Shown: positions 45,099 through 56,101 of the stretch, piece by piece | Numbering within the stretch: position 1 is the first letter of the stretch | Layout: each line of letters starts with the position of its first letter | Source of the DNA: a virus | IMG/VR virus record: IMGVR_UViG_3300034069_001731 | Span: 2,811 to 66,810 of that record | Reading direction: 5' to 3' (one strand) | Length of the DNA stretch: 64,000 nt | Program-made: the position numbers and the translations under genes | The notes under the pieces: model-generated | What the model was told of the DNA's origin: nothing | Seen by the model: only the letters and a program-made list of their open reading frames with translations | Database searches by the model: none

Positions 45099-46064
45099 TC
45101 AGGCGTTCTTGTGCTTGAAGGCCACGATCTTGATGAGCTTCGGATCGTACACGCGCTGCCAGTTGGCGGGGTTCGCCAGCTCCGCGTTCGAGGCCGTCGG
45201 GCCGGCCGGGGTGCCGACCCACTTGATGCCGCGAATGTGGAGCGCGAACTTGCGCCGGTTGATGATGGCCGTGTAGCCGCCGGCCTTCAGCGGGTCGCGC
45301 CAGGGCTCGACCGGGGTCGGCACGGCACCTTCGGCGTAGCCCACGGCGCCCGGACCGAACAGGTAGGACGTGTAGTTGCCGCTGCCGTCGACCGGCATGA
45401 CGTCGTTCACGATGACGCGCTTGCCCATGTAGAACGGGATCGGGTCACCACCCTCGGACGGGGGGATGAAGTCGATGAGGTCCTGCTCCTCCATGAGGCG
45501 CATCGTGTCCGAGTGGACGGCGACGCAGGACAGATCGGACGCGCGGTCACCGAGGCGGTACTTCGCCTGGATGAAGGCCTGGCCGTCGAACACACCGGCG
45601 CCGTTCGCGAGGCCCGTGATGTCGTAGACGTTCTGCGACATGGACGGGGAGCCCATGGTGCCGGCGGTCAGCGACAGGAGGACCTTCTGCATCTGGCGGC
45701 CCCAGTAGGCGCCGAGACGGCCGATGATCACCGGCATCGGATCGGCACCCGACAGGTCGGCGGCGAGATCGGTGCCGCCGTAGGCCTTCACGCGCTCCAG
45801 GATCGTGGACACGTCCTGGCCGGTGCCGACCTTGTCGACGATGATGTCCGTCTCGTCGATGATGGCCTCATCGTTCGCGAGATCGTTGAAGAACGGCATG
45901 TTGACCGTGGTGCCACCCATCTGGGGCATCAGCTGGTCGGTCATGTCCGTGAGGATGCCGGAGGTCCAGAAGCTGGTCTGGACCGTCGACTCCTTGACGA
46001 TGTAGCCCTTCCAGACGTCCGGGATGATCATATCCGAGAGCTGGGTAAAAGTCTGCTGCGACAT
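45099..46064 (-). CDS. Major capsid protein
   Basis: TQLSDMIIP, SFWTSGI, G.TVNMPFFNDL, DLAADLSG.DPM; follows the scaffold gene. Confidence 0.88.
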   Translation of the reverse strand: MSQQTFTQLSDMIIPDVWKGYIVKESTVQTSFWTSGILTDMTDQLMPQMGGTTVNMPFFNDLANDEAIIDETDIIVDKVGTGQDVSTILERVKAYGGTDLAADLSGADPMPVIIGRLGAYWGRQMQKVLLSLTAGTMGSPSMSQNVYDITGLANGAGVFDGQAFIQAKYRLGDRASDLSCVAVHSDTMRLMEEQDLIDFIPPSEGGDPIPFYMGKRVIVNDVMPVDGSGNYTSYLFGPGAVGYAEGAVPTPVEPWRDPLKAGGYTAIINRRKFALHIRGIKWVGTPAGPTASNAELANPANWQRVYDPKLIKIVAFKHKNA

Positions 46065-46085: not shown

Positions 46086-46134
46086 CGTTTGCTTTCGGGC
46101 AAACGGCTTGTCAGCGTTTGCTCTCCTGCAAACG
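46086..46134. promoter_or_regulatory. Twin palindromes CGTTTGC-N6-GCAAACG upstream of the capsid gene
   Basis: 46086-46105 and 46115-46134 have identical 7-bp arms and different 6-nt spacers. Confidence 0.7.
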
Positions 46135-46139
46135 ACAGG

Positions 46140-47039
46140 TCAGGCGCCGGCTTCGGCCTTGAGGCGCGCGGCACGAGTTGGGTCCGACTTCGTCATGACC
46201 ATCTGCTTGGTCATGTTCCAACCGGACTTGGAGAAGGGGTTCGAGGGGTCGTTGCCCGCGTTCTGGCGGGCGCCACCACCACCTGCATCGGTGCCGATTC
46301 CGGCCTTGGCGGCGTCGGGCTTGAACAGCACCGCTCGGGTGTTGCGAAGCTCGGCGACGAGGTCGGCGACGCTGAAGGGCACCGACGAGTAGTCGGCGCC
46401 GAGCTTGGTGCGCTCCATGCCGTTGCTGTCGACCACGACGGGTACCAGCTCGCCGTTGACTTCCTTGAGCTTCACGGCGTTGGACGCGATCAGCTCGAGG
46501 GCGTCACGAGCTTCGTCGAGCGGGTTCGCCTTGGCGAGTTCCGTCGCGATGGCGTTGGTCTTGAGGAGCTGCTGGACCTGCTGTTCCCGCTTCGAGAGGC
46601 GGGTCTTGGTGTCCGTCAGCTCGGTCGTGAGCTGGTTCTTCTCGGTGTCGAAAGCGGTCCTGAGCTGGGTCGTCGCGTTCTTGACCTTCTCGGCCGCGAG
46701 CTTGTCGGCCTCGGCGGCCGGGTCGAGGGCGGCGAGGCGCTCGTAGCCGGCGAGCTTGGTCTTGACGTCGGCGGGATCGAGGCCCTCGAACAGAGCGACG
46801 CGATCGAGCGCGGAGCGGGCCGCGGTCGGGTCGATGTTCTCGAAGGGCTTCAGCGCCGTCTTGGCGGTGTCGCGCTCCTGGCGAGCGGCGATCAGCGAGC
46901 TTTGCAGCCCGGTGATGTTCTCGAGGGCATAGCCTTCGACGGGCTCGACCTTCAGGACGAACTTGCCAGCCTTCTCCTCGTAGAGAGGGCGCAGGTTCTC
47001 ATCGACGGACGTGAGGTCCATCACAACAGCTTTCAGCAC
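46140..47039 (-). CDS. Capsid scaffolding protein
   Basis: LKAVV.DL..VDE.LRPLY, coiled coil, GIGT.GG and NPFSK.GWNMTKQ..M.K.DP..A.RLKAEA. Confidence 0.88.
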   Translation of the reverse strand: MLKAVVMDLTSVDENLRPLYEEKAGKFVLKVEPVEGYALENITGLQSSLIAARQERDTAKTALKPFENIDPTAARSALDRVALFEGLDPADVKTKLAGYERLAALDPAAEADKLAAEKVKNATTQLRTAFDTEKNQLTTELTDTKTRLSKREQQVQQLLKTNAIATELAKANPLDEARDALELIASNAVKLKEVNGELVPVVVDSNGMERTKLGADYSSVPFSVADLVAELRNTRAVLFKPDAAKAGIGTDAGGGGARQNAGNDPSNPFSKSGWNMTKQMVMTKSDPTRAARLKAEAGA

Positions 47040-47043
47040 TTGG

Positions 47044-47219
47044 AAACCATCCCGGTTTTGGATTTAGGAGCATCCCGCTCCCGCAAGGTCTCGATCCCCA
47101 TGGCATCCCGCCCGGGGTCGTTGCCGGCAGGTGCCGGCGGTCGTGGCGAGCCGCCCGGAGGCGGCGCGCAAAGGCGAAGGGATGGCGTCGCCCTCAGGCG
47201 ATCTTGGTCTATCCCAGCC
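47044..47219 (-). promoter_or_regulatory. Array of GGGAU-loop hairpins in the scaffold 5' leader
   Basis: AAACC-GGGAT-GGTTT, GGAGC-GGGAT-GCTCC, GGC-GGGAT-GCC and a weaker GGCT-GGGAT-AGACC. Confidence 0.7.
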
Positions 47220-47295
47220 GGCGTCGCGGCTTCGGGACCATTCTTCGCGCTCGAGCGGGGAGGAGGACCCGCGAGCGCATTGTGTTCTTGGATGC

Positions 47296-47331
47296 AAAAA
47301 GGCCCCGCCAGGTGGAACCTGACGAGGCCTT
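47296..47331 (-). terminator. Intrinsic terminator after portal module
   Basis: AAGGCCTCGTCAGG-TTCCA-CCTGGCGGGGCCTTTTT. Confidence 0.75.
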
Positions 47332-47372: not shown

Positions 47373-47696
47373 TCAGTGTACGGTGTAGTGCTCGTCGAAC
47401 GTCCGTTCCGGGCAGAATTTGATGATGCCTTCGACCGAGTCGAAGAGCATGTAGTCCCCAGGGAGGCTGCTTTCTGCAGAGTCGGGCGTCAGCGCCAGGA
47501 GACCGCCGAGGCGGTCGATCTGGATGGCACCCTCCATCATACGGCTCAGCATCCAATGCGGGACGTCTTCGTCGGCAACCGTCCCGATTGCCGGCACGCG
47601 CCACGCGTGGAATTCCTTACCGTCGGTGTTCTTGCAGATCAAGGCCGCCTCTCCGTTTGCACTTGAACCTCTACAGGATAGACTGTAAAAAGTCAA
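47373..47696 (-). CDS. Hypothetical protein between portal and scaffold genes
   Basis: ORF with lower GC3; ends GDYMLF...CPERTFDEHY. Confidence 0.6.
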   Translation of the reverse strand: MTFYSLSCRGSSANGEAALICKNTDGKEFHAWRVPAIGTVADEDVPHWMLSRMMEGAIQIDRLGGLLALTPDSAESSLPGDYMLFDSVEGIIKFCPERTFDEHYTVH

Positions 47697-47702
47697 TACC
47701 CC

Positions 47703-49391
47703 CTAGTTCTGTGCCTTGGGTCGGGTCTGGCCATTCGGGAAATCCCGATCTTCCTTGGAGCGCGGCTTTGCATCGGGCGTCCCGCCCGCATCAGAACCGC
47801 TTCCATCATCGACCACGGAGATCGTCTTCGTCTGCGCCAGTTCGGCAGCAGCGGCCGGCAGCTTCACCTCGGCTTCGACATCGAAGTCGTCGTCGAGCAT
47901 GTTGAGCCGCACCAGCTCCTTCAGCGCCGATTTGCGCGACAGCAGCCCCTTCGACACCGCGTCGAGGACGGCGGTGATCTTGGACGCCAGCTCGTCGGTG
48001 CCGGAGAAGTTGAAGTTCATCTCCACGCTGACGCGTCTGAAGTCCTCGCCTTTCCAGCGACCGACGTGCTGGATCGCCTTCTCGAGCGAGTCCTTGCACA
48101 CGATCGCGAGGTCGTGGACCACCGAGTTCACCCGGGTCTCAGCCAGGGAGCGCTCGTTCTGCGGCACGTATTGCCGGTTGGTCGCCTGGACCGGGTTCAG
48201 GGCCATCATGTCCATCTGGTACTCGATGGCCGCGATGTCCTTCATGCCGGCGTCGATGGCGTTGCCCTTGGGTTCGACGAAGTACCAGCGCCCCTGCGCG
48301 TCCGGCGAGGTCAGCACCACCCAGGGGCCGATCTCGAAGCCCTTGCCCTCGGGGCCGTCCTCGTCGACGGTGACGCCGGAGGACGCCAGCATGGGGAAGC
48401 GGGCGGAGGACAGGATGTTGCGCTGCTCGCTCGTCGAGCACCAGTGCTCGATCTGCTTGTAGGCGAGGTCCTGGAAGACCGGGCGGACCTGAAAGAGGGC
48501 TTCCTCTTCACCGGCCACCATGGTTTCCAGAGGGACGCGGTCCATGTCGTGGCGCGTTTCCTTGACGAGCTTCCATTCCCCGCCGGCGCCGCCGCTCTGC
48601 GTGATCGGCAGGTAGCGCAGCGGAAGCGGCTGAGTGGTGTAGACGCTGCCACCCTCCCCCAGCATCTGCAGCTGGGTCACCGGGGTGGAGCGTTCCCGCT
48701 CCCAGACCTGGGCGATGAAGGGTTCGACGACATAGATCTGGTCGATGATGACTTCCGAGAAGGTCGTCCGGTTGAAGCCGGTGCGGGTCGTCGAGAACCG
48801 GGCATGGACACAGGCCCGCTCGCCACCCACGGTGTCGAAGTAGGCGGCGAGGAGATCCTCGGCCCGGATGCGACGGAAGAACGGCTGCGGGTTCGCGGCG
48901 CGCTGGGCCGCCAGGTTCGGCAGGTTCGTCGTGGTCGGGTGGTCGACGAGGATGTGGTGGAGGCCGACGTTGACGGCCTCGTTGAAGTGGGTGTGACCGA
49001 CGAGGTGGATGTGGTGACCGGCGCCGTCCGCGTTCCAGGACCAATCCTGGAGATCTTCGGGGGCGTCCTTGAGGTAGACGAGGTTGCGGAACGGCTTCGC
49101 CGATGCGGCATCGACGGCTTCCCGGACCTTGTTGACGCAGGTGGTCTGGTTCAGCCGGTCCTGGTAGCGCGAGTCCGACTCCCGCCGGAACTGCGGCAGG
49201 AACAGCTTGCCCATCTGGCGCATGGTCTCGGTGCCGCCGTAGGTGGCGCGCATCAGCTCGATGCGGGGCATCATGGCGATCGAGGCCGCGGAGCGGGTAC
49301 CCGGGTTCGGCAGCTCGGCGACGGCGTCGGTCGCGCTCCCCATGAGAGGCGCCGGCCCCGCCGTGTTGGTGAAGACGGCGGTGCCGGTCAT
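47703..49391 (-). CDS. Portal protein (DUF4055-type)
   Basis: GGTETMRQMG..FLPQ..RE....YQ.RL; DLAYKQIEHW..TSEQ.NIL; follows TerL. Confidence 0.88.
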   Translation of the reverse strand: MTGTAVFTNTAGPAPLMGSATDAVAELPNPGTRSAASIAMMPRIELMRATYGGTETMRQMGKLFLPQFRRESDSRYQDRLNQTTCVNKVREAVDAASAKPFRNLVYLKDAPEDLQDWSWNADGAGHHIHLVGHTHFNEAVNVGLHHILVDHPTTTNLPNLAAQRAANPQPFFRRIRAEDLLAAYFDTVGGERACVHARFSTTRTGFNRTTFSEVIIDQIYVVEPFIAQVWERERSTPVTQLQMLGEGGSVYTTQPLPLRYLPITQSGGAGGEWKLVKETRHDMDRVPLETMVAGEEEALFQVRPVFQDLAYKQIEHWCSTSEQRNILSSARFPMLASSGVTVDEDGPEGKGFEIGPWVVLTSPDAQGRWYFVEPKGNAIDAGMKDIAAIEYQMDMMALNPVQATNRQYVPQNERSLAETRVNSVVHDLAIVCKDSLEKAIQHVGRWKGEDFRRVSVEMNFNFSGTDELASKITAVLDAVSKGLLSRKSALKELVRLNMLDDDFDVEAEVKLPAAAAELAQTKTISVVDDGSGSDAGGTPDAKPRSKEDRDFPNGQTRPKAQN

Positions 49392-49422: not shown

Positions 49423-50880
49423 TCACCAATCCGTGATGGTGGCCTTGCGGGGTCCGATGAGGTTGTTGAAGGCGTCCGAGGTCGCGTCGACCTGGTCGTC
49501 GTGGCTTCCGAGAGGGAAGGTCTCGATCTCCTGGATGAAGGCGTCCTTGAACATCGCGCCGGGCCGCATCAGCACGTTGCCGTTCTCGACCTGGGCGGCG
49601 AAGGCGGAGGCCCGGGTCTCTTTCGAGCCCGACGGCCGCTTCACGGTGACGTTGTATCCGGCGAGCTTGCGGACGAAGTTCTGGCTCTGGTACTTGCCGG
49701 CCTGACCGGGATCTTCGGGCAGCACGATCTTGACCGACTTGCCGTCGTCGGCCGCGGTCTTGAGGATCCTGTCCTCGACCTGGGCGGCGGAGCCGCGGAA
49801 GCGGATGATGTCCTCGATGTAGAAGCGGCCATCGGTGCCGCGGCTCATCAGGGTGCCAACCGTGTAGTCGCCCTTCGACGAGGCGGCGAGATCCCAGGCG
49901 CGGACGCGGGTGCGGCGCGAGGGGATATCGGTCCATTCCTTGAACCAGGCGCCGCGGAACATGCCGCCTTCGAGCGCGATCGGGCGCTGCTGGTACATGG
50001 CGGACCAGGAGCGCTCGCCCATGACGTCCTGCTTCTCCAGCAGGGTGCCGAGCGAGAAGCGGTTCGGCGCCAGGGGTTCGTCGGGGAAGCGACCCAGGGG
50101 ATCACCAGGCACCCTGCCCTCGGAGTCGAGGATGTAGGCGCCGTCTTCGCCCTTGAGCGGCTCCGGCAGCGCCGGCAGGCGCAACACCTTCCAGGGGCGC
50201 CCCTTCCCCTCGGCCTGCAGCTTCAGAAGCCGGCCGGCGAGGTCGTCGTGGTGCCACCGGGTCAGGGTGAGAATGATGGCCGACTTCTCCTGAAGTCGGG
50301 TGAACACGACGTCCGTGTACCAGTCCCAGTGCTTCTGGCGGATGGTCGGCGAGTCGGCTTCGGAGCGATCCTTGATGGGATCGTCGATGAGGAAGACGTT
50401 GGCGCCGCGGCCCGTGGTGGCCGAACCGACGCCGACGGCGAAGTAGGTGCCGCCGCCATCGATGGCCCACTCGTCGTTGGAGCGGTTGTCGGAGCGGATC
50501 TTCACATGCGGGAAGAGCCGACCGAACTCCTTGCCCTCGATGATGTCGCGGACGTTGCGGCCGAAGCCGGCGGCGAAGTCGGCGTTGTAGGAGGCCGAGA
50601 TGATCTTGCGGTTCGGGTTCCGCGCCATGGCGTAGGCGGGAAAGCGTCGCGTCGACAGCTCCGACTTCCCGTGCTGGGGAGGCGCGAAGATCATGAGGCG
50701 ATCGTTCTCGCCCCGCTCCACCTCCTCCAGGGCGTCGGCCACCATGCGGTGGAAGCGGTCGGCGGTGTAGCCTGGCATGGTGTATTCGGAGAAGGGGATC
50801 AGCCCTTCACGGGAGCGCTTGCGGGCAAGCAGCTCCGCGGTGGCGTCCGCGAGGGACACCGGAAGGTATTCAGCCGACAT
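49423..50880 (-). CDS. terL: Terminase large subunit
   Basis: Walker A APPQHGKS, Walker B FLIDDP, TRWHHDDL, AWDLA and HDDQVDA. Confidence 0.96.
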   Translation of the reverse strand: MSAEYLPVSLADATAELLARKRSREGLIPFSEYTMPGYTADRFHRMVADALEEVERGENDRLMIFAPPQHGKSELSTRRFPAYAMARNPNRKIISASYNADFAAGFGRNVRDIIEGKEFGRLFPHVKIRSDNRSNDEWAIDGGGTYFAVGVGSATTGRGANVFLIDDPIKDRSEADSPTIRQKHWDWYTDVVFTRLQEKSAIILTLTRWHHDDLAGRLLKLQAEGKGRPWKVLRLPALPEPLKGEDGAYILDSEGRVPGDPLGRFPDEPLAPNRFSLGTLLEKQDVMGERSWSAMYQQRPIALEGGMFRGAWFKEWTDIPSRRTRVRAWDLAASSKGDYTVGTLMSRGTDGRFYIEDIIRFRGSAAQVEDRILKTAADDGKSVKIVLPEDPGQAGKYQSQNFVRKLAGYNVTVKRPSGSKETRASAFAAQVENGNVLMRPGAMFKDAFIQEIETFPLGSHDDQVDATSDAFNNLIGPRKATITDW

Positions 50881-55786: not shown

Positions 55787-56101
55787 TCAGCTCTCCATCG
55801 CGGAGAGATCCGGGGACCTCCCCCGGTTGTCGGTGATCTCGAGTGGCCGGCGGAGAGCGACTTCCCATCCCGGGAAGGCTTCGATCGCGCCGACGATCAG
55901 CGGGCGCAGCACATGCGACACCCAGAGGTGATGGTCTTCGATGATGTCGCCCGTCGGCCGGCCGAGAACGGCCTTGGCGTAGCGGCGCGTCACCGGCTCG
56001 CCGTAGACGGCGATGTCCCAGCTCGCGGGCTCGAAGCCCTTCATCCAGCGTGCCAGGGCGGCACCATGGGCGCGCGATGACGCCACGAGCAGGGCTTTCA
56101 C
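55787..56101 (-). CDS. Hypothetical protein
   Basis: GTG overlaps the upstream TGA; [13 protein letters not shown]... Confidence 0.55.

Follow-up and report, generated by a model that had tools for sequence, protein, structure and literature searches.

The window analyzed here, a stretch of 64,000 nucleotides, makes up most of a 72-kb linear virus contig (completeness ~60%); judged by its capsid protein, the nearest relative in culture is Bradyrhizobium phage BDU-MI-1 (51% identity). The head genes lie in one block (Table 1), in which a gap of ~330 nt separates a 107-aa ORF from the head scaffolding gene. We took the GTG at 47039 as the scaffold start because homologues begin with MLKAVV; the window's own database record (P0002) places this start 6 codons too late. 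The scaffold-capsid spacer of the window contains two TTTGC-N6-GCAAA palindromes (46088-46103 and 46117-46132), one copy of which is kept in Bradyrhizobium-phage relatives. The corresponding UUUGC-N6-GCAAA spacer hairpins were dropped as a capsid RNA motif because they recur throughout the window (7 matches vs 0.5 expected), and a genome-wide DNA operator or promoter element is the more likely explanation for them.

Table 1. Head genes, leader hairpins and look-alike features of the window
Feature	Position	Strand	Remarks
GGGAU and GCGAU hairpins upstream of UvsX/RecA-like gene	55796-55877	-	
Terminase	49423-50880	-	
DUF4055 portal	47703-49391	-	
C-GGGAC-G hairpin, portal 3' end	47772-47790	-	model match, E 0.0025
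107-aa ORF	between portal and leader	-	no family assigned
C-GGGAC-G hairpin, within 107-aa ORF	47574-47592	-	
Intrinsic-terminator-like hairpin bounding the leader	47300-47320	-	weak alone
Stable hairpin with anti-SD-like CCUCCUCCC loop, directly after terminator	47247-47278	-	-20.3
GGGAU word without stable stem	47206-47219	-	-0.4; closing-pair probability 0; not counted as member
8-nt complement able to pair with SD hairpin	47179-47186	-	full-leader fold
Third hairpin, C-GGGAU-G loop	47096-47116	-	3 bp + bulged A + 4 bp
Penultimate hairpin, C-GGGAU-G loop	47067-47081	-	5-6 bp; -7.0 kcal/mol; P = 0.87
Start-proximal hairpin, C-GGGAU-G loop	47044-47058	-	5 bp; -2.6 kcal/mol; holds best SD match
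Tandem-hairpin core up to start codon	47037-47085	-	model R1 training member, 43.6 bits
Head scaffolding protein, 299 aa	46140-47039	-	GTG start; PHROG 206, E 1e-34
Major capsid protein, SPP1 gp13-like	45099-46064	-	PHROG 247; next gene downstream of scaffold

The preliminary description of this DNA placed the leader hairpins at the correct coordinates but counted three of them as clean, which holds for the start-proximal and penultimate hairpins only; the third is bulged rather than fully paired, and its 4-bp part includes one G-U pair (-10.1 kcal/mol). A weaker fourth hairpin that had been proposed further upstream does not fold around its GGGAU word. The penultimate hairpin has a 5-bp Watson-Crick stem and lies 23 nt upstream of the last loop, and most clade-1 leaders have a third copy, roughly between -60 and -85. 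As originally described, the last hairpin ends 4 nt ahead of the GTG and covers the SD-like run: upstream of the start, the strongest anti-SD match (-7.4) is given by its loop together with its 3' stem, and this places a cis site of the window where scaffold translation begins. Only 3 of the 118 GGGAT words in the window lie within a stem of at least 4 bp, two of these 3 being in the scaffold leader, and two such hairpins in one leader were obtained in 0 of 5000 dinucleotide shuffles of the window leader. The whole window leader shows no unusual stability (z = -0.93). The start-proximal and penultimate hairpins are kept in homologues, where compensatory changes are present, and the conserved core comprises these two alone, about 45 nt, and not the 250-nt leader that had been treated as a unit. 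The leader had also been said to follow a terminator; a terminator-like hairpin does bound it, but this is weak on its own, with 4 such hairpins in the region vs 2.3 in shuffles.

Several further features of the leader and its surroundings were considered. In a fold of the full leader, the sequence of the last (SD) hairpin pairs instead with an 8-nt complement, and we give this pairing no weight because the complement is not kept in homologues. The stable hairpin with the CCUCCUCCC loop has a weak similarity to ar14 (E 0.15) and is not kept in homologous leaders, of which one other contains a word similar to CCUCCUCCC; an ar14 or cuckoo-type sRNA was rejected, as the score is 21.9 bits vs a gathering score of 58.8 and the CCUCCUCCC loop is single, with no repeats. 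The positions of the two C-GGGAC-G hairpins in the portal and the 107-aa ORF are not kept in relatives, and these hairpins may be extra sites or chance. The copies in the recA leader (55871 and 55801) are absent from the closest relative (L367) and were treated as chance.

Loci gathered by scaffold and capsid homology yielded 81 distinct homologous leaders, many of which are close kin, so that the counts drawn from them overstate the number of independent events. These leaders contain 115 GGGA(U/C/A) hairpins with stems of at least 4 bp, compared with 2.6 in shuffles (maximum, 6), and the density of such hairpins is 10.7 per kb in the leaders vs 0.23 per kb in the flanks; under the same rule, the antisense strand of the homologous leaders gave 0 hairpins. 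Two or more hairpins are present in 50 of the 81, and the distance from GGGA to the start is 5-15 nt in 55 of 59 leaders. A quick-version tree indicates that the two-hairpin state needs about five changes, compatible with few origins. When sites were picked on the 7-mer alone, without a presupposed stem, the next two pairs were canonical in 81/82 and 80/82 sites, with all four Watson-Crick types represented. Further, pairing reaches 96% across 34 aligned tandem cores (slid controls, 27-43%), a figure biased upward by the selection of rows for having stems, and both-sided change is seen in 7 of 9 pairs. Covariation of the stems, previously claimed from the copies of one genome, is not demonstrable from these but is evident across homologues. 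We conclude that the leader hairpins form a conserved RNA structure: their loop is fixed, they are spaced in tandem and they overlap the ribosome-binding region. The absence of hairpins on the antisense strand, an excess of G-U over C-A at pairs 2-4 and the combination of variable stems with a fixed loop led us to reject a DNA operator, and these sequence patterns favour, but do not prove, an RNA rather than a DNA element. Control through an upstream ORF starting at the loop AUG was also rejected, since its frame varies (28/12/7) and the loop U is often C or A. Database calls for L067 (5014-5901) and clade-1 relatives often start at an AUG within the hairpin loop, and such starts add a spurious-looking MPRISGMD extension.

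We then asked where else the element occurs. A covariance model (R1), as had been suggested, scores strongly at scaffold leaders: the window has one strong match, its own training site, and 5 related phages have one strong match per genome, at the scaffold leader. Among 61 Bradyrhizobium and 151 alphaproteobacterial genomes, with 40-101 candidates scored per genome, the sole strong score fell on the scaffold leader of a prophage; apart from it, 210 host genomes yielded nothing comparable. A host regulon or decoy RNA was rejected, as host matches reach at most 27 bits vs 48.9 for the prophage. The best non-prophage look-alike (L327 near 1535, minus strand; 24.5 bits) has three GGGA-loop hairpins with real stems in a predicted host ORF, with no scaffold nearby. 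When viral contigs were scanned for the motif alone, the matches fell in scaffold leaders, in coding sequences (for the most part with stems of 2-3 bp) and at two loci with genuine stems, which sit immediately downstream of PHROG-206 scaffolds and ahead of a PHROG 283 capsid; the examined matches that combine two genuine stems with a gene-boundary position lie beside PHROG-206 genes. The capsid family switches (PHROG 247 or 283) while the scaffold family is constant. Thus, whatever the host or capsid type, the motif goes with a single scaffold family, PHROG 206, which has 5,651 representatives at E <= 0.001. This supports the earlier suggestion of a cis-regulatory RNA family, here one that belongs to the scaffold gene; a lack of hairpins in homologous leaders, named beforehand as a refutation, was not observed. 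At L241 (4425-5150), a GIY-YIG-type homing endonuclease gene lies immediately 3' of a motif-bearing scaffold gene. The tandem-hairpin element is modular and not universal: BP63, S144, Baskent_P4_1, Barton, PAJD-1 and MMDA13 represent lineages that have the scaffold N-terminal domain without the motif. Other hairpins are seen near the start in scaffold lineages without a GNRAN motif (the L006, L029, L074, L179 and L178 leaders), with a GAC loop in L006 and L029, and these are possible alternative operators.

The named hosts of the GGGAH-loop form are all Alphaproteobacteria, which raised the reading that a host factor is involved. This reading is weakened by the distant YuA/M6-type scaffold lineage (gp55 in YuA), a group defined by protein and not by motif that comprises phages of Pseudomonas, Stenotrophomonas, Bordetella and Rhodobacter. 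Its 9 leaders carry 14 G-N-R-A-N hairpins vs 0.5 expected, with a separate SD and with GUGAU, GUGAG, GUGAC, GAGAU or GCGAU loops that lack GGA. Because of these GUGAN, GAGAU and GCGAU hairpins, we define the family loop as G-N-R-A-N; the GGGAU loop of the preliminary description holds for the hairpins of the window but not for the family. Further, Rhodobacter phage RcRudolph (one genome) has the loop of its own scaffold lineage, unlike the other alphaproteobacterial phages. The loop tracks scaffold lineage and not host class or capsid family. In lambda boxB, a hairpin read by a protein, the loop has five bases and incorporates a GNRA sequence. The scaffold-leader loop likewise has five bases based on GNRA, but its register is G-N-R-A-N, and the boxB-like GNRYA register is not enriched.

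GNRA is a stable motif with which the loop begins, and the hairpins could set the translation rate, or the processing and stability of the mRNA, purely by their structure, with no protein ligand and by way of host nucleases or tertiary RNA contacts. Consistent with this are the terminator-like hairpin bounding the leader and the strong same-loop hairpins found at the end of the capsid gene in some loci of clade 2. However, enrichment is seen for loops in which GNRA is followed by one more 3' base but not for plain GNRA tetraloops, of which 0-1 were counted vs 0.6-4.7 expected. The SD hairpin also has little stability (-2.6), and loop position 2 is lineage-specific; we consider control by structure alone improbable.

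The host regulator CsrA/RsmA, or a phage copy of it, binding GGA loops over the SD was considered as well. The GGA of the loop, the C-G closing pair, the tandem spacing and the SD overlap resemble CsrA targets (PMC4347634), the repeated GGA-loop hairpins over the SD recall both CsrA/RsmA leaders and CsrB-type repeats, and 4 of 92 hairpins have an AGGA loop. However, G precedes GGA in the other 88, and the ACA-N-GGA context of the SELEX consensus is absent. No CsrA passed the cut-off in any of 151 Bradyrhizobium genomes, in the 5 named hosts, in 5 near-complete related phages or in this contig (60% complete). GGA is also dispensable in the sister lineages, as Pseudomonas phages of the PHROG-206 scaffold family use loops without it. 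For the GGGAH clade, the CsrA reading is largely refuted, and overall we regard it as very improbable. Tandem hairpins read by a protein are also known as the dual stem-loop motifs of ANTAR proteins (PMC4347634), to which the scaffold leader, with its proposed protein reader, is similar in its tandem arrangement.

Copies of the hairpin are also found beyond the leader. Many relatives have one inside the scaffold coding sequence, at codons 25-26, and the Gly25 codon is GGG in 23 of 32 cases vs 97 of 642 other Gly codons; the window has GGC at Gly25 and neither a coding-region nor a spacer copy. In clade 2 (Ochrobactrum/Brucella, Caulobacter and Phenylobacterium prophages), hairpins are repeated in the scaffold-capsid spacer (29 vs 1.4) and sometimes also follow the capsid gene. 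L192 and L233 carry hairpins only downstream of the scaffold gene, in the scaffold-capsid spacer, with four copies in L233. Long G+C-rich hairpins of 9-12 bp with a GGGAU or GGGAA loop, terminator-like in appearance, are seen 3' of the capsid gene in L174, L133, L128 and L117. We also note that, in clade-2 spacers (L138:3270-3375, L144, L174, L268 and others), a stretch of 10-12 nt directly ahead of the capsid SD is perfectly complementary to the first hairpin, and its sequence covaries between phages; two mutually exclusive folds are possible. A switch of this kind was rejected: a long helix masks the first hairpin in 13 of 16 cases, but when the hairpin is forced to form, the accessibility of the start site changes only slightly and in no consistent direction (up in 9, down in 5 and the same in 2). 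The copies at the capsid gene, whether additional or sole, are not explained by simple autorepression. In an alternative reading, the hairpins would be docking sites and not a switch, tethering scaffold to the scaffold-capsid mRNA so that procapsids begin to assemble on nascent chains, and the copies in leader, coding sequence (Gly25 GGG) and spacer, as well as the spacer-only copies of L233, are consistent with this. Against it, the last hairpin of most leaders lies on the SD or in the ribosome footprint, as for a translational operator, and the window lacks the coding-region and spacer copies, so that docking appears quite improbable.

Overall, the element is best read as a modular RNA operator of 2-4 short hairpins spaced ~18-24 nt apart, with the last on the ribosome-binding site, in which the stems vary freely and the G-N-R-A-N loop is fixed. 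These hairpins most likely let a phage head protein control the amount of scaffold, and the controlling protein is probably the scaffold itself. Post-transcriptional autoregulation of the P22 scaffolding gene was reportedly described in 1985 by Casjens and Adams and by Wyckoff and Casjens, and the N-terminus of the P22 protein is said to have a role in it. The present leader resembles P22 in having a structured translation-initiation region at a scaffold gene and in the proposed logic of repression by free scaffold; it differs in its scaffold family (PHROG 206) and apparently in its repeated hairpins with a defined loop and the pre-capsid copies. In the mechanism that we propose, a loop-recognising phage protein, most likely unassembled scaffolding protein, would bind the tandem hairpins and block ribosome loading, and uptake of scaffold into procapsids would lower the free pool and relieve repression, as in P22. 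With moderate confidence, we interpret the element as an operator through which free scaffold would repress its own translation in the manner of P22. In other lineages, the copies before the capsid gene might, more tentatively, allow the same protein to tune coat synthesis. In a wider version, which we view as unlikely, PHROG-206 scaffolds would read G-N-R-A-N hairpins sequence-specifically and act on the entire head transcript: besides repressing their own start, they would use the coding-region and spacer copies either to govern capsid translation or to tether the mRNA and so seed procapsids, and loop and protein would have changed in step from one lineage to the next.

The scaffold consists of a small N-terminal alpha/beta domain followed by long helices. 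The N-terminal domain is predicted confidently (pLDDT 89.5), with look-alikes only among phage proteins; fold searches of the PDB with the scaffold and with this domain gave no clear match, which implies neither a new fold nor an inability to bind RNA. A homodimer prediction for residues 1-75 scored 0.30 vs a mark of 0.42. The N-terminal 45 residues contain 8 acidic and 5 basic residues, which counts against the scaffold as ligand, and we regard the domain only as a candidate RNA binder because it is net acidic and persists in motif-free lineages. The ligand that controls scaffold, and sometimes capsid, translation might instead be another head-module protein (portal, terminase, capsid or a small unannotated one): the motif is phage-specific, the DUF4055 portal and the terminase are inherited together with the scaffold, which counts against singling out the latter, and clade 2 has extra copies before and after the capsid gene. 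However, the capsid family varies under a constant motif, the small ORF preceding the leader is absent in the motif-bearing L071, and the scaffold gene is always flanked by the motif, making another head protein a rather unlikely ligand.

Structured RNAs before scaffold genes are already a known kind, and scaffold autoregulation has the P22 precedent; a survey of the literature on such autoregulation and on orphan pre-scaffold RNAs yielded no defined operator with a known loop. RF02991, RF03003 and six further candidates have been described before GP20-type scaffold genes (PMC10690425), and, as with these RNAs, a conserved structure lies here directly upstream of a head scaffold gene; several homologues of the window scaffold also carry PF06810. 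For the six candidates, the hosts given by name are Veillonella, Lachnoclostridium, Lysinibacillus and Gemmiger, unlike the Proteobacteria found here, a distinction based on the described hosts. In Rfam searches, GP20-a (RF02991) and GP20-b (RF03003) gave no match at E values up to 10 in the contig and none at the gathering score in homologous loci (5 for GP20-a); no Rfam family reached its gathering score, weak ar14 and RsmW matches lying below it. The family may be among the 10,006 unnamed candidate RNAs of the same study (PMC10690425).

The family offers a 45-nt candidate operator with a five-base putative recognition loop and natural loop variants between lineages, and phages carrying this scaffold family are in culture (YuA, ZC01, PaMx28, RcRudolph and BDU-MI-1). 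It is directly testable because the operator is short and its natural loop variants occur in cultured phages. If true, the proposed control would reveal the means by which phages keep scaffold and coat protein in balance; a small domain that binds RNA and a compact RNA part that responds to protein would also be gained.
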